A stretch of 64,000 nt of DNA, from positions 7,837 through 71,836 of the forward strand of contig CANQEJ010000001.1 of the NCBI GenBank assembly GCA_947594925.1. Direction: 5' to 3'. Within the stretch, counting starts at the first letter, position 1, and the number at the start of each line of letters is the position of its first letter. The notes under the pieces were generated by a model that had not been told where the DNA came from, ran no database searches, and was given only the letters and a program-made list of their open reading frames with translations. The translations under genes and the position numbers were made by a program. Source of the stretch: an uncultured Bacilli bacterium (lineage in GTDB: Bacteria; Bacillota_I; Bacilli_A; RF39; UBA660). This document shows, piece by piece, positions 1,068 to 62,998 of the stretch.

Positions 1068-1660
1068 TATATTAGCACCTCCAGATATTTATTGATATCA
1101 TCTAGAATATTAAATTTTTTTGCATAATCAAGAAGTAAAGGAAGATTTCTTTTATTTTTATCCTTTAAATATTCTGTTATAGCATATTTAGTTATTTCTA
1201 TATCTTGATTATCCCTATTCCTAAGTAAATCACACATACATCTTTCTGCATTATAACATTTTATAAATTGTCCTTGAGGACTTTTAATTTCAATTATACC
1301 TAAATCAAATAATTCTTTTTTTACAAAATGTAGTTTAACTTTTTTTGCTTTCCTTAAACTTCCATTATATCCTCTATTTACTGTAACATGATATTCACGT
1401 GGAACTGACTGGCAAAGATCTAAAAAATATAAAGATGTTTCATAAGAAAAAACTGCATTATTTCCATAAATTAAATTAAAATATTCATCACCCCAAGTAG
1501 AAGGTAAAACATATAAACCTTTTTTTACTCTTTCTAGTTTTTTATTAGTAACTAATCTTGTCAAAAAAATCTTATTTATATTTTTACTTACTACTTCTTT
1601 TGTAGTGATAATTCCATTATTTTTTTTAGCCAAATTTAATATAATGTCTTCTTTTTTCAT
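1067..1660 (-). CDS. abiEi: AbiEi-family antitoxin / transcriptional regulator
   Basis: 197 aa; the N-terminus (IILNLAKKNNGIITTKEV...KGLYVLP) is winged-HTH-like; it sits immediately upstream of and translationally coupled to the AbiEii gene. Confidence 0.7.
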   Translation of the reverse strand: MKKEDIILNLAKKNNGIITTKEVVSKNINKIFLTRLVTNKKLERVKKGLYVLPSTWGDEYFNLIYGNNAVFSYETSLYFLDLCQSVPREYHVTVNRGYNGSLRKAKKVKLHFVKKELFDLGIIEIKSPQGQFIKCYNAERCMCDLLRNRDNQDIEITKYAITEYLKDKNKRNLPLLLDYAKKFNILDDINKYLEVLI

Positions 1661-9534: not shown

Positions 9535-10473
9535 TTAAATTTCTGTAACTTCCGTATCTTTATAATAATGCGTAAGAATTTGGTCATAACTTGCTCCACT
9601 TTTAGCCATGGCATCTGCTCCATACTGGCTCATACCTACACCATGTCCATAACCATTAGTAGTAATTTCTAGCGTATCATTATCTTTAATATTTATGACA
9701 AAATCAGTTGAACGTAGATTTAGTAAATTACGGACCTCCACCCCACTAAAACTTTGATTATTGATAATCAAACTATTAATTCGTCCCGAAGCACTATAAT
9801 TAATATCTTTAATTTCTATGTTAAAACAATTAATCCCTAATTTATTACAAAACTCTGTCTTTGATATCATAATAGTTTTAATAACATTTGCGGAAATTTC
9901 ATTTTCCCCTTCACTTTCCACACTAACTAAATAATCTTGTTTTTCTTTAAAAACATTAATAGCATCTTCTGTATAGCCATTACTCATAGCAAAATAATAT
10001 GACTTTATCACTTGATTATCGTGCTTAACTACCATATTTTTAGTTTCTTCGACAGCTTCTTTTATTTTATTATAATATTTAGAATATTCATCTTGCCATT
10101 TTTCTTGCATTTGATTTTGATTTAAATAAACTTGGTCGGCGGTAGTTGTCATTACATCATATTCATTATTTAAACTTTTTTTATACATTGCATATGTTCT
10201 AGAGGCGACTGCTTGAGCTTTTAAAGCCTCTTTTTCAAAACTCGCCGGCATTTCCCCAGCTACCACCCCTATTACATATTCTTCTAAATCCATTTCGGTA
10301 ATCGTTTCATCAGGATTTAAAACTTTTAAAGTATAGTTTTTAACTAAAGGTAACTCCTTTTCTTCTTTTTTTGACAAATTAAAATTAGTTTCCTTATGCA
10401 AGAAACTAATTACAGCTATTGGTAACAAAATTATCACTATACTTAAAAGAATTTTATTTTTCATGATTATCAC
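9535..10473 (-). CDS. spoIID: Stage II sporulation protein D (SpoIID lytic transglycosylase)
   Basis: SpoIID signature SYYFAMSNGYTED...GHGVGMSQYGA. Confidence 0.9.
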   Translation of the reverse strand: MIIMKNKILLSIVIILLPIAVISFLHKETNFNLSKKEEKELPLVKNYTLKVLNPDETITEMDLEEYVIGVVAGEMPASFEKEALKAQAVASRTYAMYKKSLNNEYDVMTTTADQVYLNQNQMQEKWQDEYSKYYNKIKEAVEETKNMVVKHDNQVIKSYYFAMSNGYTEDAINVFKEKQDYLVSVESEGENEISANVIKTIMISKTEFCNKLGINCFNIEIKDINYSASGRINSLIINNQSFSGVEVRNLLNLRSTDFVINIKDNDTLEITTNGYGHGVGMSQYGADAMAKSGASYDQILTHYYKDTEVTEI

Positions 10474-19072: not shown

Positions 19073-19100
19073 AAAGATACTAATTTACCGTAGTATCTTT
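19073..19100. terminator. Bidirectional hairpin shared by the convergent PBP and noc genes
   Basis: Perfect 10 bp stem AAAGATACTA / TAGTATCTTT with an 8 nt loop, flanked by an A-tract and a T-tract; it overlaps the last codons of noc. Confidence 0.45.
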
Positions 19101-20411
19101 ATTAATTTTTATAATTATTTGATATTCATTATCTAAATCAACTTCTTCACTATCCACATTAAAGCCCTTTTCTTTTAGAATATCAATGACATCTCTAGCT
19201 TCATTAATTGCACTTTTTAAATCTAGACCTGCTGCTTCTTTTTGTTTTTCCTCATAGTTAGGGTCTAATAAATCAACTTGGTCCATTGGGTCAAATAAAG
19301 TCTCTAGTTTTGGCTCATTAGCACTAGGTGCTGGAGTTAAATCAATAACTGGTTTATCACTATTTGGGGTTGGAACTGGTGTAGGAGCTGGTTGTGGAGC
19401 AACATTGAAGAATTTATTTTCCTCTTGTACCTGACCATTAGGTATAGGATTTTGAATTGGTTGATTATTTATAGGTTGATTACTTATAGGAGGTGTTTGA
19501 TTTATATTATTTGGCATCGTATTTGGCATAGCAGTTGGACTACTATTAAATATCGCTGTATCTCCTGTTAAAGTATTCATATTAGCAGATTCATCTTCTA
19601 AAAAATTAAAGAACTTATTTTGTGGTTTATCACCGGGAGCAGTTTCCGTAGTTGGTTTCGGTGGCTCTGGTCTTGGTGCTTGATTATCAAAGTTAAAAAA
19701 GGTATTATTAACCGGGTCATTAACCGGAGCAATATCAGTGGCATTATCTCTTATATTATCCACATCTTGAGTTATAGTTACCAAAGGTATTCCATCATTT
19801 GTATTCATTTGATCCTTTTTTATTTCGACATCTAACTGTCTTACAGTTAACCTTTCATTTATAATTTTTGCTAGCCACTCTTTTTGCTTTTCTTTATTAT
19901 TCACCGCAAGTAAACTGCGCGCATGTCTTTCGGAAATCTGGCCATTTAATAAAGCTTGTTGTACAGATTCATCTAGATTTAATAAACGTAATTTATTAGC
20001 AATAGCTGGTTGAGATACACCCATTTTCTTGGCTAATTGTTCTTGAGTTAGATATCCTTTATCTAAAATATTTTTATAACTTCGTGCTTCTTCGATAGCA
20101 GTTAAATCTTTTCTTTGGACGTTTTCAACTAAAGCTACCTCCGCACTAGTTTGGTCATCTATATTAGATATAATTGCTGGTACAGTAGTAAGTCCTGCCA
20201 TTCCGGCGGCACGATAACGACGTTCTCCGGCAATTATTTCATATTTAGCACCCATCTTACGTAATACTAATGGCTGAATTATTCCGTGTTGTTTAATAGA
20301 TTCTGAAAGTTCTAATAATTCTTGTTCATCAAAATTAACACGTGGTTGAAATTGATTAGGAATAATATCAGTTAGAGCTATTTGTAAAACTTCTTGATTT
20401 GTATTATTCAT
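19080..20411 (-). CDS. noc: ParB-family protein, Noc-like (nucleoid occlusion), with a long Pro/Asn/Gln-rich C-terminal extension
   Basis: ParB N-terminal domain (IPNQFQPR...IAGERR); HTH region GVSQPAIANKLRLL...ISERHARSLLAVNNKEKQ resembles B. subtilis Noc as recalled; lies immediately downstream of rsmG, the Noc position in Bacilli. Confidence 0.7.
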   Translation of the reverse strand: MNNTNQEVLQIALTDIIPNQFQPRVNFDEQELLELSESIKQHGIIQPLVLRKMGAKYEIIAGERRYRAAGMAGLTTVPAIISNIDDQTSAEVALVENVQRKDLTAIEEARSYKNILDKGYLTQEQLAKKMGVSQPAIANKLRLLNLDESVQQALLNGQISERHARSLLAVNNKEKQKEWLAKIINERLTVRQLDVEIKKDQMNTNDGIPLVTITQDVDNIRDNATDIAPVNDPVNNTFFNFDNQAPRPEPPKPTTETAPGDKPQNKFFNFLEDESANMNTLTGDTAIFNSSPTAMPNTMPNNINQTPPISNQPINNQPIQNPIPNGQVQEENKFFNVAPQPAPTPVPTPNSDKPVIDLTPAPSANEPKLETLFDPMDQVDLLDPNYEEKQKEAAGLDLKSAINEARDVIDILKEKGFNVDSEEVDLDNEYQIIIKINKDTTVN

Positions 20412-20465: not shown

Positions 20466-21176
20466 TTATTTCAATGGTTTCTTTTTTATTTTATCATAAC
20501 TTCTTGGATATTCTTTTGGGGTTGGTCCTTCTTTTCTTATTTTAATAATTGTTCTTTCGGAATTTTCCTTTGGTAATAAAAATTTAATTACTTGTTCTTC
20601 TTTACCTTGTAAAATTTGTAAAGATTTTTGGATATTAATATTTTCATCTTTACCTTTTAAAGCTATAAAATAACCATTAACTTTAACAAAAGGCAAACAT
20701 AGTTCTAATAAAATATCTAAGCTAGCTACAGCTCGAGCTGTCACTAAATCATACTCTTCTCTTGTTTTTAAGGCATACTCTTCACAACGACCATGAATTA
20801 AATTAACATCTTTCAATTCTAAAGTTTTAACAACTTCATTTAAAAACAAAATCTTTTTATTATTAGCATCGATAATATCTAATTTTAAATGAGGAAAACA
20901 AATTTTTAAAACTATTCCCGGAAATCCTGCGCCACTTCCGACATCTAAAACATTTTCTACATGAGTTAAATCTAGAGCTTTAACAATAGTTAAACTATCG
21001 TAAAAATGTTTTAAATAAACGTCTTCTTCTTTTATAATGGCGGTTAAGTTCATTTTCTGGTTCCAAAAAACTAACAATTCATAATAAGTATGTAATTGTT
21101 CTTTTTGCTTTGATGTTAGAATAATATTTAATTTTTCTATTTCCTTATTAAATTCTTCTTTATTCATTTTTTCCAT
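20466..21176 (-). CDS. rsmG: 16S rRNA m7G527 methyltransferase RsmG (GidB)
   Basis: SAM methyltransferase fold with GSGAGFPG motif; synteny with mnmG. Confidence 0.9.
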   Translation of the reverse strand: MEKMNKEEFNKEIEKLNIILTSKQKEQLHTYYELLVFWNQKMNLTAIIKEEDVYLKHFYDSLTIVKALDLTHVENVLDVGSGAGFPGIVLKICFPHLKLDIIDANNKKILFLNEVVKTLELKDVNLIHGRCEEYALKTREEYDLVTARAVASLDILLELCLPFVKVNGYFIALKGKDENINIQKSLQILQGKEEQVIKFLLPKENSERTIIKIRKEGPTPKEYPRSYDKIKKKPLK

Positions 21177-23022
21177 ATTCCTTTTTTAAATAAACAGTTA
21201 ATACCGCAATATCCGCTGGATTTACTCCACTAATTCTTGTAGCCTGCGCAATAGTGGCCGGACGAATAGCCATTAGTTTACTTCTTGCTTCACTAGCTAA
21301 ATTACGCACTAAATTATAATCTATATCTTCGGGAATTTGTTTACTTTCTAAAGCTAAAAGTTTTTCTACTTCTTTATTAGTTTTTTCAATATATCCTTCA
21401 TATTTAATTGCAATTTCCACTTGTTCTAATACTAAAGGAGAATAATCCATTTCTAAAAAGCTTTTCAAAAAATCAATATTTATCTCTGGTCTTTTTAATA
21501 ATTTTGCTAAAGATTCTGAACGACTAGGTATTTCTAAACCCGCTTTAGTAAATATATTTTTCGTTTCTTCATTTATTTTTAAATTAGTTGTTAATAACTT
21601 GTTAGTAAGTTCTTTTATAGCAGTTTCTTTAGTAATTAATCTTTGATATTGTTCTTCATTTATTAAACCTACTTCATAACCATATTTTCTTAATCTTAAA
21701 TCGGCATTATCTCCTCTTAAAATTAGACGATATTCAGCTCGTGATGTTAGTAATCGATATGGCTCTTTAGTTCCTTTTGTTACTAAATCATCAATTAAAA
21801 CCCCAATATAAGCTTCATTTCTTTTTAAAACTAGAGGTTTTTTATTATCTATTTTTAATACCGCATTTATCCCGGCCATTAAACCTTGACAAGCCGCTTC
21901 TTCATAACCACTTGTACCATTTATCTGGCCTGCTGTGAATAAATTTTCAATAACTTTTGTTTCCAAAGAGTTTTTTAATTGTAAGGGATTAATTGCATCA
22001 TACTCTATAGCATAAGCATTTTTTAAAATTTTAGCGTTTTCAAAACCTCTTAAACTATGAACCATTTCTATTTGTACATCTCTTGGCATACTAGTTGAAA
22101 AACCTTGTAAATACCACTCATCATTTAAAATAGTTTCAGGTTCAAAGAAAAGTTGATGGCGTTCTTTATCTTTAAAACGAACAATTTTATCTTCAATAGA
22201 TGGACAATATCTTGGTCCTACACCTTCTACATATCCTCCATACATACTCGATTTTTCTAAATTATTATTAATAATTTCATGGGTTTTACTATTTGTATAA
22301 ACTAAATAACAACTCTCTTGTTTATCTATATCATATACAGGTGCATCATCAAAACTAAAAGTATAATATCTATCATCGCCCTTTTCTTCTTCTAGTTTTG
22401 TTAAATCTACGCTATTTTTATCTATTCTGGGCGGTGTTCCGGTTTTTAATCTCTGAATTTCAAAACCTAAGTTTCTTAAATTATCACTTAAATTTTTAGA
22501 TTCTTTTTCGCCATGTGGACCACCAGGTGTTTTTTCCGAACCTACTAATATCTGGGCTTTTAGATAAGTTCCAGTTGTTAATATGACACAAGTTCCTAAA
22601 ATTTCTTCTTTAGAAGCAAGGATAACTCCCTTTATTTTTTTATCTTCTATTATTAAATCTTCCACCATTGCTTCTTTTATTTCTAAATTTTTATTAGCTT
22701 GTAATACTTCTAACATTTTTTGCGGATATACTTTTTTATCCGCTTGAGCTCTTAAAGAACGAACAGCAGGACCTTTTTTAGAGTTTAACATTTTTATTTG
22801 TAATAAAGATTTATCTGCTACTTTTCCCATAATGCCCCCAAGAGCATCTATCTCACGCACGACAATTCCTTTCGCTGTTCCCCCTATCGAAGGATTACAA
22901 GGCATATCGGCAATATTTTGAATATTAGCAGTTATTAAAAGAGTTTTCTTGCCCATCTTGCTAGCAGCATACGCCGCCTCACAACCAGCATGTCCTCCTC
23001 CTACTACAATTATATCGTACAT
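21160..23022 (-). CDS. mnmG: tRNA uridine-5-carboxymethylaminomethyl synthesis enzyme MnmG (GidA)
   Basis: FAD-binding N-terminus MYDIIVVGGGHAGCEAA; 620 aa. Confidence 0.95.
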   Translation of the reverse strand: MYDIIVVGGGHAGCEAAYAASKMGKKTLLITANIQNIADMPCNPSIGGTAKGIVVREIDALGGIMGKVADKSLLQIKMLNSKKGPAVRSLRAQADKKVYPQKMLEVLQANKNLEIKEAMVEDLIIEDKKIKGVILASKEEILGTCVILTTGTYLKAQILVGSEKTPGGPHGEKESKNLSDNLRNLGFEIQRLKTGTPPRIDKNSVDLTKLEEEKGDDRYYTFSFDDAPVYDIDKQESCYLVYTNSKTHEIINNNLEKSSMYGGYVEGVGPRYCPSIEDKIVRFKDKERHQLFFEPETILNDEWYLQGFSTSMPRDVQIEMVHSLRGFENAKILKNAYAIEYDAINPLQLKNSLETKVIENLFTAGQINGTSGYEEAACQGLMAGINAVLKIDNKKPLVLKRNEAYIGVLIDDLVTKGTKEPYRLLTSRAEYRLILRGDNADLRLRKYGYEVGLINEEQYQRLITKETAIKELTNKLLTTNLKINEETKNIFTKAGLEIPSRSESLAKLLKRPEINIDFLKSFLEMDYSPLVLEQVEIAIKYEGYIEKTNKEVEKLLALESKQIPEDIDYNLVRNLASEARSKLMAIRPATIAQATRISGVNPADIAVLTVYLKKEYGKNE

Positions 23023-23029
23023 TTTATCA

Positions 23030-24376
23030 CTACTTTCCTAAACAGAAGTTTTTAAATAATTCATCTAAAAGCTCATCTTTATAAGTTTCACCTGTAATTT
23101 CTCCTAATAAATCATAAACTTTCTTTAAATCTATTTCTAACATATCAACTGGCGTTTGAATACTTATTTGCTCTTCAATATTTTCTAAAATCTTTTGACA
23201 TTGTCTTAATAAAGCAATTTGTCGAGCATTACTAACATAAGTAAAATCTTGAGTATTTATTTTATTTAAATGAAATTCTTCTATCATTTTTTCCTTTAAA
23301 GCATCTATTCCAGATAATTCTATTGTATTTCCGTAAACTACATCTTTATCTTTAATATCTATTTCTAACTTTTGGTCATTTTTATTGACAAAGATAATTC
23401 TTTTTTTTTCTTCGATATATTCTAAAATTTCTTTATCTTCTTTAGTTAATTTTTCTAAACCATTTAAAACACAAATGATTAAATCAACTTCATTTATCAT
23501 TTCTTTTGATTTAATAACACCAATTTGTTCTACTTTATCTTGGGTATTTCTAATTCCGGCAGTATCAATAAAGTTAAATTTTATTCCTTCAATTGTAATG
23601 CTTCCCTCAACAATATCTCTAGTTGTACCTGCTATATCAGTTACAATTGCTTTATTTTCTTCTATTAATTTATTAAGTAAACTACTTTTTCCTACATTAG
23701 GACGTCCAACAATCGCTACATTAATACCATCTTTAATAATCTTACCATCTTTCGCCGTTTTTAAAATATCTTTAAGTTTTCCTAAAATTTTACTGTTTTT
23801 TTCTTTTAATAATTCTAAAGTTATTTCTTCGGCATCTTCATATTCTGGATAGTCAATATTAACAGCAATATTAGCAAGAACATCCAAAATATCTTTTCGA
23901 AGCTCTTTTATAATCGCCGATAATTTACCAGTAAGACCCTTTAAAGATAAATTACGACTAGCTTCCGTTGTTGAGGAGATTAAATCACTTACGGCTTCGG
24001 CTTGAACTAAATCAATTCGTCCATTTAAGAAAGCTCTTTTAGTAAATTCCCCACCTTCAGCAAGACGACAACCTAAAGTTAAAAGAATTTCTAATATTTT
24101 TTGAACTGTTGCTAAAGACCCATGACAATTAATTTCCACAATATCTTCTAAAGTATAAGTCTTTGGAGCTTTCATTATCATTACTAAAACTTCATCAATT
24201 ATTTTATCTTCATAAGTAATAAATCCATAATGAATTGTATGACTATTTACTTTAGTTAAATCTTTACCTTTAAATATCTTATTTACTATTTCAATAGACT
24301 TTGGACCACTTAATCTAATAATAGATATTGCCCCTACTCCTAAAGCCGTGGAAATAGCACATATTGTATCACTCAT
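23030..24376 (-). CDS. mnmE: tRNA modification GTPase MnmE (TrmE)
   Basis: G-domain GRPNVGKSSLLN; C-terminal CxGK. Confidence 0.95.
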   Translation of the reverse strand: MSDTICAISTALGVGAISIIRLSGPKSIEIVNKIFKGKDLTKVNSHTIHYGFITYEDKIIDEVLVMIMKAPKTYTLEDIVEINCHGSLATVQKILEILLTLGCRLAEGGEFTKRAFLNGRIDLVQAEAVSDLISSTTEASRNLSLKGLTGKLSAIIKELRKDILDVLANIAVNIDYPEYEDAEEITLELLKEKNSKILGKLKDILKTAKDGKIIKDGINVAIVGRPNVGKSSLLNKLIEENKAIVTDIAGTTRDIVEGSITIEGIKFNFIDTAGIRNTQDKVEQIGVIKSKEMINEVDLIICVLNGLEKLTKEDKEILEYIEEKKRIIFVNKNDQKLEIDIKDKDVVYGNTIELSGIDALKEKMIEEFHLNKINTQDFTYVSNARQIALLRQCQKILENIEEQISIQTPVDMLEIDLKKVYDLLGEITGETYKDELLDELFKNFCLGK

Positions 24377-28044: not shown

Positions 28045-28127
28045 TTTGTTGATTAAATTATTTTACTTTTATTTTTAAAAAAAGTGGTATACAATGAAGA
28101 TGTTATTAAGGTAGTGGGGTGATAGGG

Positions 28128-29480
28128 ATGAGTAATGAAAATTTATGGGAAGATTTTCTTGATATTATTTGTAAGAAAACTAATCCTGTTTCTTTTAATA
28201 CTTGGTTTAACAATATCACCTTACAAAATATAGATGAGAATAATATAACAATAAAAGTTCCTTATGCTATGCATAAAAAAGTTTTAGGTGATAATTATTA
28301 TTCTTTAATTGAAGATGCTTTTATGTCATTAACAGGAATTAACTATGATATAAATTTTGTTTTAGAAGAAGAAATAACGGAAAAGAAAGATAATACCGAA
28401 ATAATTAATTTAAATAAAGAAAAAGAAAAGGTCTGGGAATCTAATTTAATTCCAAGTTATACTTTTGATAATTTTGTTGTTGGAGACACTAATCGTTTTG
28501 CGAAAACCGCAGCAGTTGCTGTCACAGAACAACCTGGTAAAATATATAATCCTTTATTTATCTATGGTAAAAGTGGGTTAGGGAAAACGCATTTAATGCA
28601 TGCCATTGGTAATCAAATTATGAAAACTACTAATTTAAAAGTTTTATATACAACTAGTGATATGTTTATGAACGACTTTACCGGTATTGCTAAAAATGAT
28701 GGTAACAATTTAGAATATGCAAATCTATTTAAAGAAAAATATCGTAATGTTGATGTATTAATTATCGATGATATCCAATATTTAGTAGGAGCCGAAAAAA
28801 CTCAACAAGAGTTTTTCCATACTTTTAATGCTTTGCATCAAGCTAATAAACAAATAATTATTAGTTCTGACCGTTCTCCAGATGATTTAAAAAAATTAGA
28901 AGAACGTCTAAGAAGTCGATTTACTTGGGGCCTTCCGGTTGATATTTATCCACCAGACTTTGACCTGCGTTGTCGGATTTTAAAAAATAAGATTAAAAAT
29001 TTAGATATTGCTAGCTTAATAGAAGAAGATGTTATCGAATATATTGCTAATTCTTGTGATAATGATGTCCGTTATTTGGAAGGAGCTATTACTAGATTAT
29101 GCGCCTATGCGGCAATGACTGTTCCTAAAGAAATTAATATGGAATTTGCTAGTGAAGCTTTAAAAGATTATATAACTAAAAATATCTATGATAACGGAGA
29201 TATCCCTAGTATTCAAAAAGCTGTCTGTGAATATTATGGTATTACTGTTGATGAACTAAAATCAAAAAAGAGAAGTAACAAAATTGCTTATCCCAGAATG
29301 CTGGCCATGTATTTAGCACGGATGCTTACTGATGAATCTTTTCCTCGTATAGGTTTAGAATTTGGAGGAAGAGACCACTCAACTGTAATTCATGCTTGCG
29401 ATAAAATTGAACAAGATTTAAAAACAGATGAACAGTTAAAAGAAATAATAAAAACTATAAAAAATAAAATAACTTGTTAA
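28128..29480 (+). CDS. dnaA: Chromosomal replication initiator DnaA
   Basis: AAA+ Walker A GKSGLGKTHL; C-terminal DnaA-box-binding domain; start placed at ATG 28128 (MSNENLW). Confidence 0.97.
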   Translation: MSNENLWEDFLDIICKKTNPVSFNTWFNNITLQNIDENNITIKVPYAMHKKVLGDNYYSLIEDAFMSLTGINYDINFVLEEEITEKKDNTEIINLNKEKEKVWESNLIPSYTFDNFVVGDTNRFAKTAAVAVTEQPGKIYNPLFIYGKSGLGKTHLMHAIGNQIMKTTNLKVLYTTSDMFMNDFTGIAKNDGNNLEYANLFKEKYRNVDVLIIDDIQYLVGAEKTQQEFFHTFNALHQANKQIIISSDRSPDDLKKLEERLRSRFTWGLPVDIYPPDFDLRCRILKNKIKNLDIASLIEEDVIEYIANSCDNDVRYLEGAITRLCAYAAMTVPKEINMEFASEALKDYITKNIYDNGDIPSIQKAVCEYYGITVDELKSKKRSNKIAYPRMLAMYLARMLTDESFPRIGLEFGGRDHSTVIHACDKIEQDLKTDEQLKEIIKTIKNKITC

Positions 29481-30875: not shown

Positions 30876-31334
30876 ATGCTAAATTATAGAATTAATGAAG
30901 AAACATTAGCTATATTTCCATATCATAAGAAAAGTAAGGTTTATGAAAATAGAAAAAGTTTTATAGTTAATGAAAGTGCTTATAGTATTATTGAAGATAG
31001 TTGTAAATATTTTGGTAGTTCTTTTGAAGGGCGCAAAAAAGGATCTGTATTCTTAACAGGTATTACTTATAAAACCCCAATTATTATTGAAGAAACTAAG
31101 GAAATTATCTTTTTTCCTACAACATCACCCAGAAGAAATTATTGTTCTTGGATATCTTTAAATAACTTAGAAAATTATTATGAAGAGAAGGGAAAAATCA
31201 AATTAGTTTTTAATAATAAAAAAGAAATTCTATTAGATGTTTCATATGGAGTAATTAATAATCAAGTTTTAAGGGCTTCAAGACTAGAATCTACTTTAAG
31301 AAAAAGTAAGAAAAATAAAGAAAAAATTCAATAA
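30876..31334 (+). CDS. comK: ComK-family competence transcription factor
   Basis: YFGSSFEGRKKGS, PIIIEETKEIIFFPTTSPRRNYCSWIS and VSYGVINNQVLRASRL align with B. subtilis ComK blocks FFGSSYAGRKAGT, PIMVDPSNQIFLFPTLSSTRPQCGWIS and ISYNSFENQVYRTAWL. Confidence 0.75.
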   Translation: MLNYRINEETLAIFPYHKKSKVYENRKSFIVNESAYSIIEDSCKYFGSSFEGRKKGSVFLTGITYKTPIIIEETKEIIFFPTTSPRRNYCSWISLNNLENYYEEKGKIKLVFNNKKEILLDVSYGVINNQVLRASRLESTLRKSKKNKEKIQ

Positions 31335-34487: not shown

Positions 34488-36935
34488 ATGGATAAAATAG
34501 TTGAAAATAATATTGAAAATGAAGTAAAAACTTGTTTCTTAAATTATTCCATGAGCGTTATTGTAGCCCGTGCCTTACCAGATTTACGTGATGGTTTAAA
34601 ACCTGTACATCGTCGTATTTTATATTCAATGTATGAATCTGGATATACACCTGACAAACCTCATAAAAAGAGTGCGAGAATTGTCGGAGACGTTATGGGT
34701 AAATATCATCCACACGGCGACTCTTCAATTTATGATGCTATGGTTCGTATGGCTCAGACTTTTAGTTTTAGACATGTTTTAGTTGATGGTCATGGAAATT
34801 TTGGTAACTTAGATGGTGATGGAGCGGCTGCTTACCGTTATACCGAAGCGCGTTTATCAAAATTATCTTTGGAAATGGTTCGTGATATTAATAAGAATAC
34901 TGTTGATTTTATTCCAAACTTTGATGAAAGTGAACAAGAACCAGAAATATTACCAAGTAGATTTCCTAATATTTTAGTAAATGGAACAATGGGAATAGCA
35001 GTTGGTATGGCCACAAATATTCCTCCTCATAACTTAGGTGAGGTTATAGATGGATGTGTTGCTTACATTGATAATCCTGATATTGATACTGATGGTTTAA
35101 TGCAACATATTAAAGGACCAGATTTTCCTACCGGAGCTGTTATTTTAGGAAACAGTGGAATTAAAAAAGCTTATGAAACTGGCCGTGGTAGTATAACTAT
35201 TCGTGGTAAAGTAGAAATAGATGAAAGTGGAAATAAAACAAGAATAATAGTTAATGAACTTCCTTATCAAGTAAATAAAGCGGAATTCCAATCTCGTATT
35301 GGCCAACTTGTAAGAGATAAAATTATTGATGGTATTACAGATATTCATGAAGAATCAAATCTTGAAAATCCTGTCCGTGTTGTAATTTATCTTCGTAAAG
35401 ATGCTAATGCTAATGTTATTTTAAATAATTTATATAAACACACGCAATTACAAACATCATATGGTATAAATTTATTAATGTTAGACCAAAAACGTCCTAA
35501 AGTATTATCTCTAAAAGAAATTATTTCGAAATATATTGATTATCAAAAAGAAATTATTATTAGAAGAACTAAATTTGATTTAGAAAAAGCGGAAGCTCGT
35601 GTCCATATTTTAGATGGCTTAAAAATAGCTCTAGATAATCTAGATGAAGTTATTAAAATAATAAGAGGGTCAAATACGGATATTGAAGCGAAAGAGCAAT
35701 TAATTTCCCGTTTTGGTTTAGATGATGTTCAAGCTGATGCTATCTTAGAAATGCGTTTGCGTCGTTTAACTGGCTTAGAACGTGATAAAATCGAAAAAGA
35801 ATTAGCAGAATTAATGGCCAGTATTGCTGAATATCATGCAATTTTAGCTAGTGAAGAAAGAATTCTTGGTATTATTAAAGATGAATTAATTGAAATCAAG
35901 AATAAATATGCTGATGAAAGACGTACCGATATTGACATGACAGCTATTGAATATATTGAAGATGAATCTTTAATACCTGTGGAAAACATTATGGTAGCTT
36001 TAACTAATAAAGGATATATAAAACGTACACCTGTTGATAACTTCCGTTCTCAAAATAGAGGAGGAATAGGTGTAAAGGGTATGTCAACTAACGATGAAGA
36101 TTTTGTCGAACATTTGATTAATTTATCTACTCATGATTACGTATTATTCTTTACAAACAAAGGAAAAGTCTATCGTCTAAAAGGATACGAAATTCCTGAA
36201 TTTAGTCGTCAATCTAAGGGATTACCGATAATTAATCTTTTACAAATAGAAAAAGATGAAATGATTTCTTCCGTTATTGCAATTAATTCTGAAGAAGATG
36301 TTAGTTACTTACTATTTGTTACTAAGAACGGTTTAGTTAAGAAGACAAAAGTTGAAGAATTTGATAAAATAAGAAATACTGGTAAGATATGTATTAATCT
36401 TAAAGATACTGATGAATTAATCTCTGTTAAAAAAACGACGGGTAATGAATATATTCTTCTTGGTTCTAACTTAGGACGTATGGTTAAATTTAATGAAAAT
36501 GAAGTTAGAGTAATGGGCCGTACCGCCAGTGGAGTAAAAGGAATTAATTTAAATGGTGGCAAATGTGTAGGTGCAGAAATTGTTACTGATGATAAAGAGA
36601 TTTTAATTGTAACCGAAAAAGGTTATGGAAAGAAAACAGCTATTTCTGAATATAGAGAAACTAAACGTGGCAGCAAGGGTGTTAAAGCTCTAAATATTAC
36701 TGATAAAAATGGAACTATCTCGGCATTGAAATTAGTAGAAGAAAATAAAGATTTAATGATAGTTACTAATAGTGGTATTATTATGAGAATGCCATTAGAC
36801 CAAATATCTACACTAGGAAGAGTTACTCAAGGAGTTCGCCTAATCAATTTAAAAGACAATCAGGAAGTAGCTACAATTAGTTTAGTTGATAAAGAAGAAC
36901 AAGATGTTTCACGTGAAACATTAGATGAAGAATAA
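34488..36935 (+). CDS. gyrA: DNA gyrase subunit A
   Basis: Active-site region [11 protein letters not shown]; GyrA-box in the C-terminal beta-pinwheel; the last codons contain parS copy 1. Confidence 0.97.
36904..36921. promoter_or_regulatory. parS: parS site, copy 1 (ATGTTTCACGTGAAACAT; the 16 bp core TGTTTCACGTGAAACA matches the parS consensus perfectly)
   Basis: Perfect 18 bp palindrome read directly from the sequence; lies inside the gyrA 3' end. Confidence 0.8.
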
Positions 36936-36942
36936 TAATAAA

Positions 36943-36975
36943 AAAAGAAGACTATAAAAGTAGTTTTCTTTTTTT
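36943..36975 (+). terminator. gyrA terminator hairpin
   Basis: Stem AGAAGACTA / TAGTTTTCT (one G-U pair) followed by a T-run; sits between parS copies 1 and 2. Confidence 0.4.
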
Positions 36976-36993
36976 ATGTTTCACGTGAAACAT
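36976..36993. promoter_or_regulatory. parS: parS site, copy 2 (perfect 18 bp palindrome)
   Basis: Identical 18-mer, intergenic. Confidence 0.8.
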
Positions 36994-37066
36994 TGATAAT
37001 TATTTTAAATTTATTTGCTAGTGTACCGTAATTTTGTTTTAATTAATATAGAAAGTAGGTAATAAT

Positions 37067-37966
37067 ATGTTTTATCGAATATTCAAATTAAAGAGAACCC
37101 CACTATGGAATATTATTTCTTTATTACTTTTATTTATTAGCGTTTACGCAACCTCCAAAGCGGAATTTCAATTATTTAAAATCTTAATTTTTTTAGCTTT
37201 AATAGTTAGTTTAATTCCTATAATAAAAATATTGCTTAAAGAAAATCCTAAAGATGGATATATTTATTCTCCCATAGTAATTGATAATAATAGTAATATT
37301 TATTTATTAAAAGAAAAAATAAATGTTATAACAATCGCATTACCAATAGTTTTATTATTTATATTAATTACTGGTGATTATACTAATGCTTTATTATTTG
37401 ATTATATAGTAATGATTTTCCCCTTATTTATTGATATAAATGATTTATTTAGAATATTAAATGAAAATAGACTAGCTAAAAATGAAGATTCATTAATTAA
37501 ATTAATCCAAAAAGGGCGAAATATATTTTATAATGTGTCTAAAGTAAATAGTTTAAAGAAAGAGAATTTTAAGTTTAAAATAGATAATAATCCTAAATTA
37601 GTTAGCTTATCCTTTAATTATGAAAATTATGAAGAATTATTATTAAAATTAAACTATGTTTCACGTGAAACATTGGAAGATAAACCAGAAATTAATAATA
37701 GTAATAATCCAGGTGAACAAAACATTTTTACTCAAATGCCTAATATTACAGTGCCTCAAGAAGTTCCTCAAACTGTAACTGTTCCTGAAAATAATGTCCT
37801 AAATAGTAATAATAGTAATAATAGTAATAATACTTCAATTGCTAATCAAGAACCAAATCAAAATATAAACAGTCCTGTTGATAACTCGAATAATTCCAAT
37901 AACAATAACGATGTTTCACGTGAAACATCAACTAATTCATCAGACATATTTAACAATTTTAAATAA
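37067..37966 (+). CDS. Hypothetical membrane protein with an Asn/Ser-rich low-complexity C-terminus; contains parS copies 3 and 4
   Basis: 299 aa ORF with several predicted transmembrane segments in the N-terminal half; no family recognised. Confidence 0.45.
   Translation: MFYRIFKLKRTPLWNIISLLLLFISVYATSKAEFQLFKILIFLALIVSLIPIIKILLKENPKDGYIYSPIVIDNNSNIYLLKEKINVITIALPIVLLFILITGDYTNALLFDYIVMIFPLFIDINDLFRILNENRLAKNEDSLIKLIQKGRNIFYNVSKVNSLKKENFKFKIDNNPKLVSLSFNYENYEELLLKLNYVSRETLEDKPEINNSNNPGEQNIFTQMPNITVPQEVPQTVTVPENNVLNSNNSNNSNNTSIANQEPNQNINSPVDNSNNSNNNNDVSRETSTNSSDIFNNFK
37656..37673. promoter_or_regulatory. parS: parS site, copy 3 (perfect 18 bp palindrome)
   Basis: Identical 18-mer inside the ORF 37067-37966. 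Confidence 0.8.
37802..37832 (+). repeat. Tandem 9 bp repeat (AATAGTAAT) x3.4 encoding an NSN run
   Basis: Read directly; in-frame within the ORF 37067-37966. Confidence 0.5.
37911..37928. promoter_or_regulatory. parS: parS site, copy 4 (perfect 18 bp palindrome)
   Basis: Identical 18-mer near the 3' end of the ORF 37067-37966. Confidence 0.8.
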
Positions 37967-37983
37967 TGTTTCACGTGAAACAT
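37966..37983. promoter_or_regulatory. parS: parS site, copy 5 (perfect 18 bp palindrome)
   Basis: Identical 18-mer starting at the last base of the ORF's stop codon. Confidence 0.8.
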
Positions 37984-38026
37984 CAAAAAAGTTGTTAAAT
38001 AAATTATTTTTTGATAGTATCTATAT

Positions 38027-38105
38027 GTGCAACAAATATATTGTAAACTGGTCAGAATCGGAAGATAGCAGCCACGTCAATCCCTGTTTGTGTGCACTTT
38101 TTTAT
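38027..38105 (+). ncRNA. ffs: Small (4.5S-type) signal recognition particle RNA
   Basis: GGTCAGAATCGGAAGATAGCAGCCACG matches the conserved SRP RNA domain IV (E. coli GGUCAGGUCCGGAAGGAAGCAGCCAAGG); a closing helix GTGCAACAAA...TTTGTGTGCAC is followed by a T-run. Confidence 0.55.
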
Positions 38106-38119
38106 TTAGGAGTTTTTCT

Positions 38120-38589: not shown

Positions 38590-40209
38590 ATGGATTATAA
38601 AGTATTATATCGTAAATACCGACCGCTAACTTTTGATGATGTGACAGGTCAGGGGGCTGTTGTTAAAACATTAAAAAATGCTATTATGCAACAAAAAATA
38701 TCACATGCTTATATCTTTACTGGTCCAAGAGGGACAGGCAAAACATCGCTAGCTAAAATCTTTGCTAGAAGCATAAACTGTGAGAATTGTCAAGATGGAA
38801 ACCCTTGTATGACATGTGAAATGTGTAAATCGTTTAATGATAATCCCGATATTATTGAAATTGATGCAGCATCTAATAATGGTGTTGATGAAATAAGAGA
38901 GTTAATTAATAATATAAAACTTGCTCCAAGCAATTCTAAATATAAAGTATATATAATAGATGAAGTGCATATGCTATCGCAAAGTGCTTTCAATGCTCTG
39001 TTATTAACTTTAGAAGAACCTCCTGCCCATGTTGTATTTATCTTAGCTACAACGGATATTCAAAACGTGCCAATAACAATTCTTTCTAGAACGCAGCGTT
39101 TTGATTTTACAAGGATATCTCCTTCGGATATAGAAAAAAGGTTAGCTTATGTATGTGAACAAGAAAACATCAAAATTACATCAGAAGCTCTTTCAGAAAT
39201 AGCTTATTTAGCTGAGGGTGGATTAAGAGATGCCTTAAGTATTTTAGACCAGTTAGCTTCGCAAACTGTTGATGAAATAACAATAGATACAGTATTAAAT
39301 ACCTTTGGAACAATATCAACGGCGAAAATTGCTGAGTTTATTAATACAATTGAAAATAATGATATCCAAGGTATGTTAGAAATATTACAGGAATTTAAAA
39401 ATTCGAGCATTGATAGCAAGGTGTTTATAAATAAATTATTAAATGCTTTAAAGGATTTAGCATTTGACATTAAAACTAGTAAAGTCGAAGAAAAAAACTT
39501 GACTTTTGAAGATATCAAAAAATTAATTCTAGAATTAAATGATACTCTTTCTAATAAACTTATGAGTGTCGACCCTTATATTTTAATTGAGATGATTGTC
39601 TTAAGCTATATGGGTAAACAAGAAACACCTGATATTTTAGAAAAAACCGCAGAATATTTCCCGGGAAATAGTGAAGAAGATAAAAAAACTCCCGAAAAAG
39701 TCATAAATGAACCAAAAAAAGAAGAAAAAAATACTGTAAATGATACAAAATTAGAAGAATTTAAAAAAATTAGAATTAATAACTGTTTGGCAGCTGCTCA
39801 AAAAAGTTTCTTAATTGATTTAAAAAACAAATGGCAAGAATTTATAAAATTTATTAAAACTGTGGATAACAATATATACTTAAATATTTGTGATACCAAT
39901 TTAATTGTTTCTTCAGATTGTTATTTTATAATTGAAACAATAACTGATAGCTCAGCAGGTTTAATTAATATTAGTACAGAAAAGATAGAAGAATATTTTA
40001 ATAAGCAGTATAATTTAAAATATAAAATAATTGCTGTTAATAGCGATGAGTGGAATATTATAAAGAAGCAATATATAAATGACTTAAATAATCATATAAA
40101 ATATGAAATAAAGGAAGAAGTTCCATTGTATATTGAAAATAAAGAAGATATTGAAAATATAGCAGGGGATATTTTTGATAAAAATAAAATAGAAATAGTA
40201 AAGGAATAA
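38590..40209 (+). CDS. dnaX: DNA polymerase III subunits gamma/tau
   Basis: Walker A GPRGTGKTS; zinc module CENCQDGNPCMTCEMC; SRT sensor motif. Confidence 0.95.
   Translation: MDYKVLYRKYRPLTFDDVTGQGAVVKTLKNAIMQQKISHAYIFTGPRGTGKTSLAKIFARSINCENCQDGNPCMTCEMCKSFNDNPDIIEIDAASNNGVDEIRELINNIKLAPSNSKYKVYIIDEVHMLSQSAFNALLLTLEEPPAHVVFILATTDIQNVPITILSRTQRFDFTRISPSDIEKRLAYVCEQENIKITSEALSEIAYLAEGGLRDALSILDQLASQTVDEITIDTVLNTFGTISTAKIAEFINTIENNDIQGMLEILQEFKNSSIDSKVFINKLLNALKDLAFDIKTSKVEEKNLTFEDIKKLILELNDTLSNKLMSVDPYILIEMIVLSYMGKQETPDILEKTAEYFPGNSEEDKKTPEKVINEPKKEEKNTVNDTKLEEFKKIRINNCLAAAQKSFLIDLKNKWQEFIKFIKTVDNNIYLNICDTNLIVSSDCYFIIETITDSSAGLINISTEKIEEYFNKQYNLKYKIIAVNSDEWNIIKKQYINDLNNHIKYEIKEEVPLYIENKEDIENIAGDIFDKNKIEIVKE
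39656..39669. promoter_or_regulatory. Noc-binding-site-like palindrome ATTTCCCGGGAAAT (perfect match to the B. subtilis NBS consensus), inside dnaX
   Basis: Read directly from the sequence; a GC-rich 14-mer in an AT-rich genome. Confidence 0.55.
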
Positions 40210-40220
40210 GGTGAAAGAAA

Positions 40221-40520
40221 ATGAATATGCAAAACTTAATGGCTCAAGCTCATAAAATTCAAAAAGAAATGATGAAAAAGAAAGAAGAAATTGGTAAAAA
40301 AGAATTTACTGGTAAATCTGAATTAGTTGAAGTGGTTTTTAATGGTAATAAAGAATTAGTTTCCTTAAATATTAAAAAGGATAAACCTTTTGATGTTGAT
40401 GATATTGAAATATTAGAAGACATGTTAAAAATAGCAATAAAAGAAGCTTTAGACAAAGCAAGCAAAGAAGTAAGTGAACAAATGGGAGCCACTGCCGGAC
40501 CTCTAGGTGATTTATTTTAA
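40221..40520 (+). CDS. YbaB/EbfC-family nucleoid-associated protein
   Basis: 99 aa protein between dnaX and recR; conserved synteny. Confidence 0.9.
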   Translation: MNMQNLMAQAHKIQKEMMKKKEEIGKKEFTGKSELVEVVFNGNKELVSLNIKKDKPFDVDDIEILEDMLKIAIKEALDKASKEVSEQMGATAGPLGDLF

Positions 40521-41125
40521 TGATATATCCTGATGATTTAAATTTTGCTATCGAGAATTTCAAAAAAATTCCGGGCGTTGGTGAAAAGAGTGCAGAAAGA
40601 CAAGTTCTATCTATCTTAAAATTATCTGAAGAAGAAGTAACTGATTTTGCTAATAGTTTAATAAATGCTAAAAAAAGATTACACCCTTGCGAAATATGTG
40701 GAAACTTAACTAGTAATGACATATGTGATATCTGCGCCAATGAAAAACGTGATAAAAATCTAATTTGTATTCTAGAAGATTTCAAAAGTTTAGTGGCTTT
40801 TGAAAAATCTGGAAACTTCACCGGAACATATCATGTATTAAATGGCTTAATTTCGCCAATTGATGACCGAGGCCCTGAAGATATCAATTTAGCAAGTCTT
40901 CTCAAACGAATTGAAAATGTCGATGATTGTGAAATAATTATAGCTTTAAAATCAAGTGTTGAGGGAGAAGCTACCACGATGTTCATAAATAAGATTGTCA
41001 AAAATAAAAATGTTAAAATATCTCGCTTGCCATACGGAATTCCTATGGGAGCTGATATAGATTATCTTGACCCAATTTCTCTTGATAAAGCTTTAAAAGA
41101 CCGAAAAATTATATCAGAAGAATAA
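40520..41125 (+). CDS. recR: Recombination protein RecR
   Basis: C4 zinc finger CEICGNLTSNDICDIC; Toprim domain. Confidence 0.95.
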   Translation: MIYPDDLNFAIENFKKIPGVGEKSAERQVLSILKLSEEEVTDFANSLINAKKRLHPCEICGNLTSNDICDICANEKRDKNLICILEDFKSLVAFEKSGNFTGTYHVLNGLISPIDDRGPEDINLASLLKRIENVDDCEIIIALKSSVEGEATTMFINKIVKNKNVKISRLPYGIPMGADIDYLDPISLDKALKDRKIISEE

Positions 41126-41138
41126 TTTCCCGGGAAAT
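41125..41138. promoter_or_regulatory. Noc-binding-site-like palindrome ATTTCCCGGGAAAT (perfect), starting at the last base of the recR stop codon
   Basis: Read directly from the sequence. Confidence 0.55.
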
Positions 41139-41189
41139 AAAGTTCTAAATAATCTCGACATGCATAAGATTTCCAATAAGGAGATACTT

Positions 41190-41378
41190 ATGATTAGAAA
41201 AATAGGAACAATAATTAGAAAAGTATGTACGGCAGTATTTGTAATTTATGGTTTGAATTTTATTTTATCATCTATTAATATATTTATCCCGATAAATTTA
41301 ATAAATGTTGGAGTGGTTTCTTTTTTAGGATTTCCGGGATTATTCTCGCTAATCTTAATGTTTTTTGTCCTAAAGTAA
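41190..41378 (+). CDS. bofA: BofA-family protein (inhibitor of pro-sigma-K processing)
   Basis: IFIPINLINVGVVSFLGFPGLFSLILM aligns with B. subtilis BofA IHVPINLVTTAISGILGIPGIAALVVI; follows recR as in B. subtilis; start at ATG 41190 after an AAGGAG ribosome-binding site. Confidence 0.6.
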   Translation: MIRKIGTIIRKVCTAVFVIYGLNFILSSINIFIPINLINVGVVSFLGFPGLFSLILMFFVLK

Positions 41379-50960: not shown

Positions 50961-51035
50961 TTTATATTTTTTATAAATATTAGTATTTTTTGTCGAAAAT
51001 CCTCCACAATATAAATAGAAGTGGAGGCTTTTATT

Positions 51036-51572
51036 TTGAAATCAACTGGAGTAATAAGAAGAATAGATGATTTAGGGCGAATTGTAATTCCTAAAGAAAT
51101 AAGACGCAATTTAAAAATAAGAGATGGCGAAAATATGGAAATATTCATTGATTTAGATGCTATAGTCTTAAAAAAATATTCTAAATTAGATGATATGTTA
51201 TCAGTTACCGATAGAATATGTAAAATGCTTCATGAAATAATGGATTATAATGTTGCTATCACCGACCGGGAACATATAATATCCAGTTATGGAAAAGAAG
51301 AATTTAAAAATTTAAAAAATAAAAATATTAGTGAAGATTTAACTTACTTAATAGATAAAAGAGATACCTTAAATGCACAAAGTTCTAAAACTCTTAAATT
51401 GACTGAAGATACCTTAATAGAAGGATACTTTCTCATAATTCCTTTAATAAGTTCTGCTGATAGTATGGGGTTAATTATAATTCATGACTTAAAACCTTTA
51501 TCTGAAAAAGCGGAAATAGGGGCGAAGATAGCTAACTTTTTAATATGTGAACAAGTAGATATTGATTTTTAA
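51036..51572 (+). CDS. spoVT: Stage V sporulation protein T (AbrB-type N-domain plus GAF-like C-domain)
   Basis: KSTGVIRRIDDLGRIVIPKEIRRNL matches the AbrB/SpoVT swapped-hairpin domain; TTG start at 51036 behind GGAGG; follows mfd as in B. subtilis. Confidence 0.8.
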   Translation: MKSTGVIRRIDDLGRIVIPKEIRRNLKIRDGENMEIFIDLDAIVLKKYSKLDDMLSVTDRICKMLHEIMDYNVAITDREHIISSYGKEEFKNLKNKNISEDLTYLIDKRDTLNAQSSKTLKLTEDTLIEGYFLIIPLISSADSMGLIIIHDLKPLSEKAEIGAKIANFLICEQVDIDF

Positions 51573-62178: not shown

Positions 62179-62221
62179 TATCATAATGATAAATTTACCA
62201 TATAATATTATGGTGAACATT

Positions 62222-62998
62222 ATGAAAATAAAAAAAGGTGATTATGTTACAAGAAAGTCTTATGAAAATGATACTGTTTTTTTAGTTTTAAATGTTAGAG
62301 ATAATATTTGTTATTTAAAAGGGGTAGATGTTCGTCTTTACGCGGATAGTGTGGAAAATGATTTAATAAAAGTTAATAAACCAGAAAAAAATGATGCTTT
62401 TATTAAGAAGTTTAAAGATGAATTTTTAATGGATAGAAATGACTATTTCTACTTGCCTCCTCGAGCGCTTCACGTGGACGGAGATATGGAATATTTGGAG
62501 CGTTGTTTAAAGTTTTATAAAGAAGCGGGAGTACAAGCTGTTGGTAAATGTATTGCTGAGAAAGATATTGCTAAAGAACTGCCGCAACTTTTAACTAGTA
62601 TTAATCCGGATATTGTCATAATTAGTGGTCATGATGCATATTATAGAAAAAAAGGAGATATCCACGATATCAACAATTACAAAAATAGTGCTAATTTTGT
62701 TAATGCCGTTAATGTTGCCCGAAAGTATGAAAAAAGTCATGAAAAGTTAGTAATTATAGCAGGAGCTTGTCAAAGTAATTACGAAGAGTTAATTAAAGCT
62801 GGTGCTAATTTTGCTTCAAGTCCAAAAAGAGTAAATATTCATGCTTTAGACCCTGCGATAATTGCCGTATCCCTAGCTTTAACTGAACGCAATAAAGAAA
62901 TTGACTTAGTAAATCTGTTAGAAAAAACTAAATATGGTAAAGATGGTATGGGCGGTTTAAAATGTAATGGTTTAATGTATGTGGGTTATCCAAGATAA
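62222..62998 (+). CDS. yabG: Sporulation-specific protease YabG
   Basis: KKGDYVTRKSYENDTVFLV...VDVRLYADS aligns with the B. subtilis YabG N-terminus; ksgA-yabG-veg order conserved. Confidence 0.7.
   Translation: MKIKKGDYVTRKSYENDTVFLVLNVRDNICYLKGVDVRLYADSVENDLIKVNKPEKNDAFIKKFKDEFLMDRNDYFYLPPRALHVDGDMEYLERCLKFYKEAGVQAVGKCIAEKDIAKELPQLLTSINPDIVIISGHDAYYRKKGDIHDINNYKNSANFVNAVNVARKYEKSHEKLVIIAGACQSNYEELIKAGANFASSPKRVNIHALDPAIIAVSLALTERNKEIDLVNLLEKTKYGKDGMGGLKCNGLMYVGYPR

Follow-up and report, generated by a model that had tools for sequence, protein, structure and literature searches.

We analysed a 64,000-nucleotide stretch of DNA from an uncultured Bacilli bacterium (contig CANQEJ010000001.1, positions 7,837 to 71,836; hereafter the window). 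The sign of the GC skew changes at ~27-28 kb and dnaA starts at 28119, which places the chromosomal replication origin, oriC, at the centre of the window. To the right of oriC lie two copies of the Noc-binding site (NBS), a palindrome with the core ATTTCCCGGGAAAT, and an array of parS sites; to the left lies a gene of the ParB family in the position of noc. The parS array lies ~9 kb and the two NBS lie 11.5-13 kb to the right of oriC. The features central to this analysis are as follows.

39655..39670, no strand: NBS 1, a perfect 16-bp palindrome, TATTTCCCGGGAAATA, in the variable linker of dnaX
41124..41139, no strand: NBS 2, AATTTCCCGGGAAATA, perfect in its 14-bp core and matching at 15 of 16 positions overall
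38590..40209, plus strand: dnaX (clamp-loader tau/gamma), host gene of NBS 1
40520..41125, plus strand: recR, the last base of whose stop codon is the start of the NBS 2 core
36904..37983, no strand: parS array of five perfect 18-bp palindromes, ATGTTTCACGTGAAACAT, from the end of gyrA to the signal recognition particle (SRP) RNA gene and tadA
36905, 36977, 37657, 37912 and 37967, no strand: starts of the parS 16-mers, perfect sites that together span 36905-37982
19080..20411, minus strand: noc-orthologous ParB-family gene encoding 443 aa with ParB_N and HTH_ParB domains, directly downstream of rsmG

An initial annotation of this DNA had claimed two perfect 14-mers, one inside dnaX and one at the recR stop codon, and both placements proved exact. 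The only copies of the core ATTTCCCGGGAAAT in the window are those at 39656-39669 and 41125-41138, and tolerating two or three mismatches adds no others. NBS 1 falls within dnaX, where it is read as the codons TAT TTC CCG GGA AAT (Y-F-P-G-N). The NBS 2 14-mer begins with the final A of the recR TAA stop codon (41123-41125), and the remainder of the site occupies the gap between recR and a bofA-like open reading frame (ORF). Both sites carry the NBS states A1 and C6 and neither qualifies as parS (TGTTNCACGTGAAACA). NBS 1 and NBS 2 share a stretch of only 15 nt, so each is an occurrence of the motif in its own right and no larger repeat is involved. The annotation's argument that two chance occurrences are unlikely is likewise borne out: an exact ATTTCCCGGGAAAT appeared in none of 100 dinucleotide-preserving shuffles of the window, and the count expected from the pooled base composition of related DNA is ~1e-4 per 64 kb. 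Other readings of the palindromes were also considered. Recognition as a restriction site (CCCGGG) was rejected, with only three such hexamers in 64 kb, two of which are the NBS, and a hairpin terminator at NBS 2 was ruled out by the absence of a downstream T-run.

The coding position of NBS 1 means that the peptide YFPGN could in principle be the object of selection, with the palindrome as its by-product. An island of sequence [Y/N]FPGN is present in 84 of 120 DnaX homologues (47-69% identical) within a linker that is otherwise unalignable, and two further homologues carry YFLGN, which corresponds to an NBS with one mismatch. Codon usage separates the two levels of constraint. In the window TTC accounts for 14% of Phe codons and CCG for 9.5% of Pro codons, and the peptide would be encoded by exactly the NBS codons with a probability of 0.0035, which argues for selection on the DNA and not on the peptide. 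Furthermore, TATTTCCCGGGAAATA recurs in non-coding DNA of relatives. With this reading effectively refuted by the shuffles, the codon probability and the enrichment of the motif in related DNA, we regard an origin of these matches in chance or in DnaX coding constraint as having almost no probability. The dnaX site is instead a clear example of a DNA-binding-site constraint that becomes visible as a conserved peptide island in a protein linker.

Conservation was examined in relatives of the window species, which are uncultured gut metagenome-assembled genomes (MAGs) labelled 'Bacilli bacterium', 'Tenericutes' or 'Erysipelotrichaceae', whose GC content is 24-31% and whose chromosome-scale contigs reach ~1.2 Mb. 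A contig search with a fused query of Noc residues 1-200 and RecR recovered noc loci of the lineage, but every match to its RecR half was in an unrelated organism. DnaX homologues and a metagenome scan by RecR alignment gave access to the dnaX-recR region instead. Across 901 kb of related origin-region DNA the exact 16-bp NBS occurs 24 times against an expectation of 0.0002. An NBS in the dnaX linker was confirmed at the DNA level in five related loci (L051, L052, L054, L058 and L059), three of which (L051, L052 and L054) carry a second NBS within a few bases of the recR stop, a position that is also an NBS in L064. At least one NBS is present in 23 of the 27 distinct loci that span the full ±10 kb, and 42 of 60 NBS fall within a 6-kb interval that begins 4 kb upstream of the recR start and ends 2 kb downstream of it. 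The density to the right of oriC is one NBS per 6.9 kb, compared with one per 53 kb in 686 kb around noc, across oriC. More distant relatives have positionally conserved NBS of their own, one inside a methyltransferase gene that follows a PSP1-domain gene, ~2.2-2.4 kb past the recR stop, and another at the end of mfd, ~6.3-7.4 kb past it (14725 and 18876 in L062, 14702 and 18874 in L063; also L067, L100, L108 and L138). The window has no NBS at either of these positions.

The product of the gene at 19080-20411, which tblastn identified as the sole ParB-family gene of the window, has the features expected of a protein that reads these sites. Among solved structures it scores about equally against B. 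subtilis Spo0J and Geobacillus Noc (each ~190 bits), with only remote similarity to KorB (E = 1.6e-12, versus ~1e-55 for Noc and Spo0J). In Caulobacter ParB numbering, classical Noc is QKKR at positions 173, 179, 184 and 201, and ParB has R173, two variable positions and G201; Q173 reads adenine 1 of the NBS and R201 reads cytosine 6, one lysine, whether at 179 or at 184, suffices for binding, and dual-specificity variants mostly have T or S at 201 (Jalal 2020, PMC7383237). Structure alignment assigns Q173, K179, N184 and R201 to the window protein, which thus matches three of the four Noc residues, with N184 as the exception. All 120 of its closest homologues (384-639 aa) read QK[N/S/T]R. Given Q173, K179 and R201, the protein is predicted to be NBS-specific. 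It lacks the R173/G201 pair and the N-terminal LG(K/R)GL peptide that interacts with ParA. The CTPase core is preserved, with a Pfam ParB_N match at E = 2.5e-33 and intact CTP-binding boxes, GERRYRAA and ENVQRKDL, and residues G62, E63, R64, R65, E96, N97, Q99 and R100 are invariant across the family. Taking motif and protein together, both palindromes are very probably genuine, selectively maintained sites for the Noc orthologue encoded at 19080-20411.

The initial annotation was silent on the five parS sites that begin 1.7 kb upstream of NBS 1. The array starts in the last codons of gyrA, and 1.7-3.2 kb separate it from the NBS. All 32 related loci that span the gyrA/tadA gap have an equivalent array, with 2-11 copies in L051-L063. 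It lies 2-3 kb upstream of the dnaX and recR NBS in L051, L052 and L054, and the array of L062, like that of many metagenome loci, has NBS interspersed among its parS sites. Hybrid parS/NBS sites were absent from the 901 kb of related origin DNA, which indicates that the two motifs are read separately. B. subtilis has ~70 NBS over most of its chromosome, missing only from the terminus (Adams 2015, PMC4331003), so the closeness of the window sites to the origin is not the anomaly that the annotation took it to be. The unusual feature is the lineage-wide co-clustering of parS and NBS.

Several further observations concern the array itself. L058 contains 11 perfect parS copies, mostly ~105 bp apart, a spacing that suggests a tandem-repeat origin. 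A parS variant, TGTTCCACGTGGAACA, is used throughout the arrays of L059 (9184-9384) and L062 (8965-9327), with the NBS unchanged. In the window, an ORF of 299 aa (37067-37966) lies inside the array and includes two parS sites; it has a hydrophobic N-terminal half, an N-rich tail and no Pfam match, and since relatives have no called gene in this gap it may be spurious or specific to this genome.

One account of the two sites is an ordinary chromosome-wide Noc, for which they would be two of several dozen scattered NBS serving classical nucleoid occlusion, their closeness to parS being incidental. The motif is identical to the NBS of B. subtilis and S. aureus, the gene is in the noc position, two sites per 64 kb is near the B. 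subtilis average (~70 per genome), and NBS 6-9 kb from recR, or across oriC, occur in some relatives. The sampling of origin DNA alone also leaves room for a classical, chromosome-wide role. The distribution of sites argues otherwise: beside the parS array, where they are often interspersed with parS sites, NBS reach ~8 times their density around noc, and the other 60 kb of the window contains none even at three mismatches. Furthermore, the N-terminal amphipathic helix that Noc requires is absent from the whole family. On balance we consider a classical chromosome-wide Noc possible but doubtful.

The architecture of the protein departs from textbook Noc in other respects. The AlphaFold2 model is confident for residues 1-205 and 375-440, and the intervening ~170 aa (approximately residues 205-375) form a P/N/Q-rich linker that is disordered in the model. 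The C-terminal domain consists of a helix and two strands and resembles in sequence the C-terminus of Noc from a Bulleidia species. Within the linker, residues ~235-340 contain the motif xNKFFNFLEDE together with one or two weaker FFN copies. All 120 homologues have at least one FF motif, 89 of them with the core NKFFNF, mostly continuing as ...LEDE, and F267 and F268 are invariant. The hydrophobic moment of NKFFNFLEDE (0.50-0.53) falls within the span of values for Noc N-terminal helices, that of B. subtilis included (0.43-0.56), so that a relocated weak membrane anchor is conceivable; from its sequence the motif may be such an anchor or a partner-binding element. A Noc orthologue without the membrane helix and with an inserted linker that carries a conserved motif is, in itself, new.

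A number of findings weigh against the assignment of these proteins as Noc and against the generality of the two sites. Noc cannot function without its N-terminal amphipathic helix, which was predicted in all the homologues examined (Adams 2015, PMC4331003). The window protein lacks such a membrane helix: its sequence opens with MNNTNQEVLQI and reaches the first conserved strand after only seven residues, and an in-frame stop upstream of this start excludes a longer form. The helix is missing from all 120 of the closest homologues, whose N-termini are just as short, except for a few where an upstream start call is probably an error. AlphaFold2 gives no helix at NKFFNFLEDE, where confidence rises only slightly. 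The score against TIGR04285 (nucleoid_noc) is 285.9 bits, below the 315-bit cut-off, with Bulleidia Noc at 315.0 and a canonical ParB at 244.8, and NCBI labels one family member (P0084) only as a 'ParB/RepB/Spo0J family partition protein'. Position 184 is N, S or T, whereas the lysine of known Noc is nearly invariant. However, the Bulleidia protein, a Noc in a classical rsmG-noc-soj-spo0J arrangement with a separate canonical ParB alongside, is also QKNR, which makes N184 a lineage variant of Noc and no sign of changed specificity. As for the sites, the dnaX NBS is present in 20 of the 50 metagenome loci that cover dnaX (~40%), and among 65 distinct metagenome loci anchored on RecR the recR-stop NBS is found in just 3, which limits it to close relatives. 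These metagenome loci are related and not independent of one another. Finally, the sampled DNA is origin-proximal, and NBS could be equally dense elsewhere in the genome. Overall, the functional Noc proposed in the initial annotation holds as far as the palindromes, their conservation and enrichment, and a protein in the noc position with the matching residues Q173, K179 and R201 are concerned; it is not supported in the sense of nucleoid occlusion, for which the helix is absent and the family score too low.

The position of NBS in some relatives raises the alternative that the palindromes are transcriptional operators, bound by a ParB-family protein that acts mainly as a repressor in the manner of KorB or an autoregulating ParB, with bofA and the genes after it as targets in the window and the repressor's own operon as the target in relatives. 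In L011, L016, L033 and L050 an extended -10 element (TGnTATAAT) lies ~5 bp downstream of an NBS, which thereby covers the -35 of the promoter of mnmE-mnmG-rsmG-noc, and NBS 2 is in the intergenic gap upstream of the bofA-like ORF. In contrast, NBS 1, the most conserved site, is deep within a coding region, and a scan with a consensus for sigma-70-like promoters and for terminators returned none at either window site. The noc operon of the window has no NBS, the sites of the jag/mnmE and mnmE/mnmG gaps being absent, and many NBS of relatives are inside genes or within the parS array. Transcriptional control as the function of the window sites is therefore improbable in our estimation. For the relatives, the promoter sites number one to three in the jag/mnmE gap (L011, 5912-5941; L016, 5894-5982; L033, 5946; L050, 5853-5930), with additional NBS at the mnmE/mnmG junction in L011 (7345) and L050 (7335). 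The location of the promoter sites over mnmE-mnmG-rsmG-noc suggests autoregulation in these genomes.

The universal presence of perfect parS arrays implies a protein that reads them, yet neither ParA nor a canonical ParB was found. Searches of the window with tblastn returned no ParA and no second ParB-family gene, and neither the window nor any of 38 related loci covering noc ±10 kb contains soj/spo0J. No ParA or canonical R173/G201 ParB was present in 2.16 Mb of fetched DNA, mostly origin regions of the lineage, and extension through YabG revealed no ParAB in ~4-6 kb past the right end of the window. Candidates from outside these regions were rejected. The ParBs returned by a search seeded with an AT-rich Erysipelotrichales ParB lie on contigs not tied to the lineage; L056, which carries parA-parB, has no detectable DivIC in common with the window species, and L057 is a classical rsmG-noc-parA-parB genome.

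This absence, together with a position 184 unlike that of classical Noc, would be accounted for if the lineage had a single ParB-family protein that reads both parS and NBS, acting as centromere binder and Noc at once. The residues of the protein point the other way, as Q173 and R201 are NBS-specific states, and in Bulleidia a QKNR Noc stands beside a separate canonical ParB. No hybrid parS/NBS sites exist in the 901 kb of related origin DNA, and the search covered only ~±20 kb around oriC, which makes a ParB elsewhere likely. We consequently rate a single dual reader as very unlikely. Since the specificity residues argue against parS reading by the Noc-like protein, a canonical ParB is to be expected elsewhere in the genome.

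The NBS code and the Noc family were already known. What this locus adds, beyond the helix-less orthologue, is the conserved placement of NBS within or beside the origin parS array, with one site embedded in dnaX. Regarding cellular output, a role coupled to the origin and parS is favoured, with considerable uncertainty, because the sites co-cluster in this way and the canonical membrane helix has been lost. We infer a succession of binding, CTP-dependent spreading, membrane contact and cellular output on a conserved origin-proximal module, composed of a parS array in the gyrA/tadA gap and NBS in the dnaX linker and just past recR. Each NBS would nucleate a dimer of the Noc-like protein, whose intact ParB_N domain (GERR, ENxQR) would bind CTP and close as a clamp. 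The clamp would then spread over several kilobases, as Noc and ParB do, so that a further nucleoprotein domain would form 9-13 kb to the right of oriC, adjoining the ParB-parS complex or overlapping with it. In S. aureus, Noc spreading extends 8-10 kb around a site; a similar reach here would make the Noc-like and ParB domains overlap. The most likely output would be marking or tethering of the newly replicated origin, either nucleoid-occlusion-like or origin-organising, and the weakly amphipathic NKFFNFLEDE in the linker may substitute for the N-terminal membrane helix.

One possible, if tentative, history for this large group of gut Bacilli with small genomes is that Noc has been repurposed as an origin-specific partner of ParB. 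NBS would have moved to the parS array to form a composite two-clamp 'centromere', the N-terminal anchor would have been lost, and the FFN linker would have provided a new membrane or partner interaction. A more radical version, in which one protein services both motifs and no canonical ParB exists, is unlikely. Noc is the textbook nucleoid-occlusion factor of Firmicutes, defined by scattered NBS, CTP-dependent spreading and an N-terminal membrane helix. A widespread gut group appears here to keep the NBS code and the DNA-reading residues of Noc, with the membrane helix dropped and the sites concentrated by the parS array. If the repurposing is correct, it would be a natural experiment in the re-wiring of ParB paralogues after duplication, with a pair of CTP-switch clamps loading next to each other on a short DNA segment.

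The genes surrounding these elements form a recognisable origin region. To the left of oriC, on the minus strand, lie rnpA, yidC, jag, mnmE, mnmG, rsmG and the noc-like gene, followed by a class A penicillin-binding protein (PBP) gene. To the right are dnaA, dnaN, comK, recF, gyrB, gyrA, the SRP RNA gene, tadA, dnaX, ybaB, recR, the bofA-like ORF and holB. Two of these landmarks have the following coordinates.

28119..29480, plus strand: dnaA, beside the GC-skew switch
20466..24376, minus strand: rsmG-mnmG-mnmE, a conserved origin cluster directly upstream of the noc-like gene

The SRP RNA is of the bacterial small type (Rfam RF00169, 53.4 bits) and is encoded at 38016-38113, between the parS array and tadA/dnaX; this placement fits the order scr-dnaX-ybaB-recR of B. 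subtilis. A comK homologue (30876-31334) is located between dnaN and recF, adjoining oriC, and keeps this position in all relatives examined (L051, L052, L054, L058, L059, L062 and L063). At the left end of the window (213-1660) is a module of AbiEii toxin and AbiEi antitoxin, a type IV toxin-antitoxin or abortive-infection system.

Sporulation-associated genes are found at 9535-10473, 41160-41378, 51021-51572 and 62186-62998 of the window and at 10480-12698 of L060. Pfam confirmed two such genes within the window, spoIID and yabG, and four immediately past it, spoVG, yabP, yabQ and divIC; two window ORFs, one bofA-like and one spoVT-like, were assigned from relatives only. The lineage, with its chromosome-scale contigs of ~1.2 Mb that are sometimes labelled 'Tenericutes', may still sporulate, or these genes may be remnants.

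One of the closest known systems is the Noc-NBS nucleoid-occlusion system of B. subtilis and S. aureus (Wu 2009; Adams 2015; Jalal 2020, 2021; Pang 2017), whose palindrome core, ATTTCCCGGGAAAT, is identical. The window protein shares with these Noc proteins the ParB-family CTPase fold, a gene just downstream of rsmG, Q173/K179/R201 and a Noc-like C-terminal domain. It differs from them in having no N-terminal amphipathic helix, N184 in place of lysine, a TIGR04285 score below the cut-off and a ~170-aa linker with NKFFNFLEDE between the DNA-binding and C-terminal domains. Furthermore, soj/spo0J are not adjacent, and the NBS lie near oriC, by or in the parS array and not scattered, in the ~±35 kb sampled around oriC. 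The ParB(Spo0J)-parS system resembles the present one in fold, in CTP-binding motifs and in the clustering of sites near oriC within genes and intergenic gaps, and in some relatives NBS also lie near the operon of the Noc-like protein itself. In contrast to that system, the NBS differ from parS at A1 and C6, the protein has Q173/R201 instead of the invariant R173/G201, the LG(K/R)GL peptide is missing, and no ParA gene is nearby. With KorB and other ParB-family regulators the likeness is confined to several relatives in which NBS overlap the mnmE-mnmG-rsmG-noc promoter; the two window sites are at no recognisable promoter and the sequence similarity is remote. The Erysipelotrichales Noc of Bulleidia sp. 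(L037, 269 aa, rsmG-noc-soj-spo0J) shares QKNR, is 52% identical over the N-terminal 200 residues and has the same type of C-terminal domain. It differs in that it keeps the N-terminal helix (MRKSIFELFDAK...), has no long linker, reaches the TIGR04285 cut-off and adjoins soj and a canonical spo0J.

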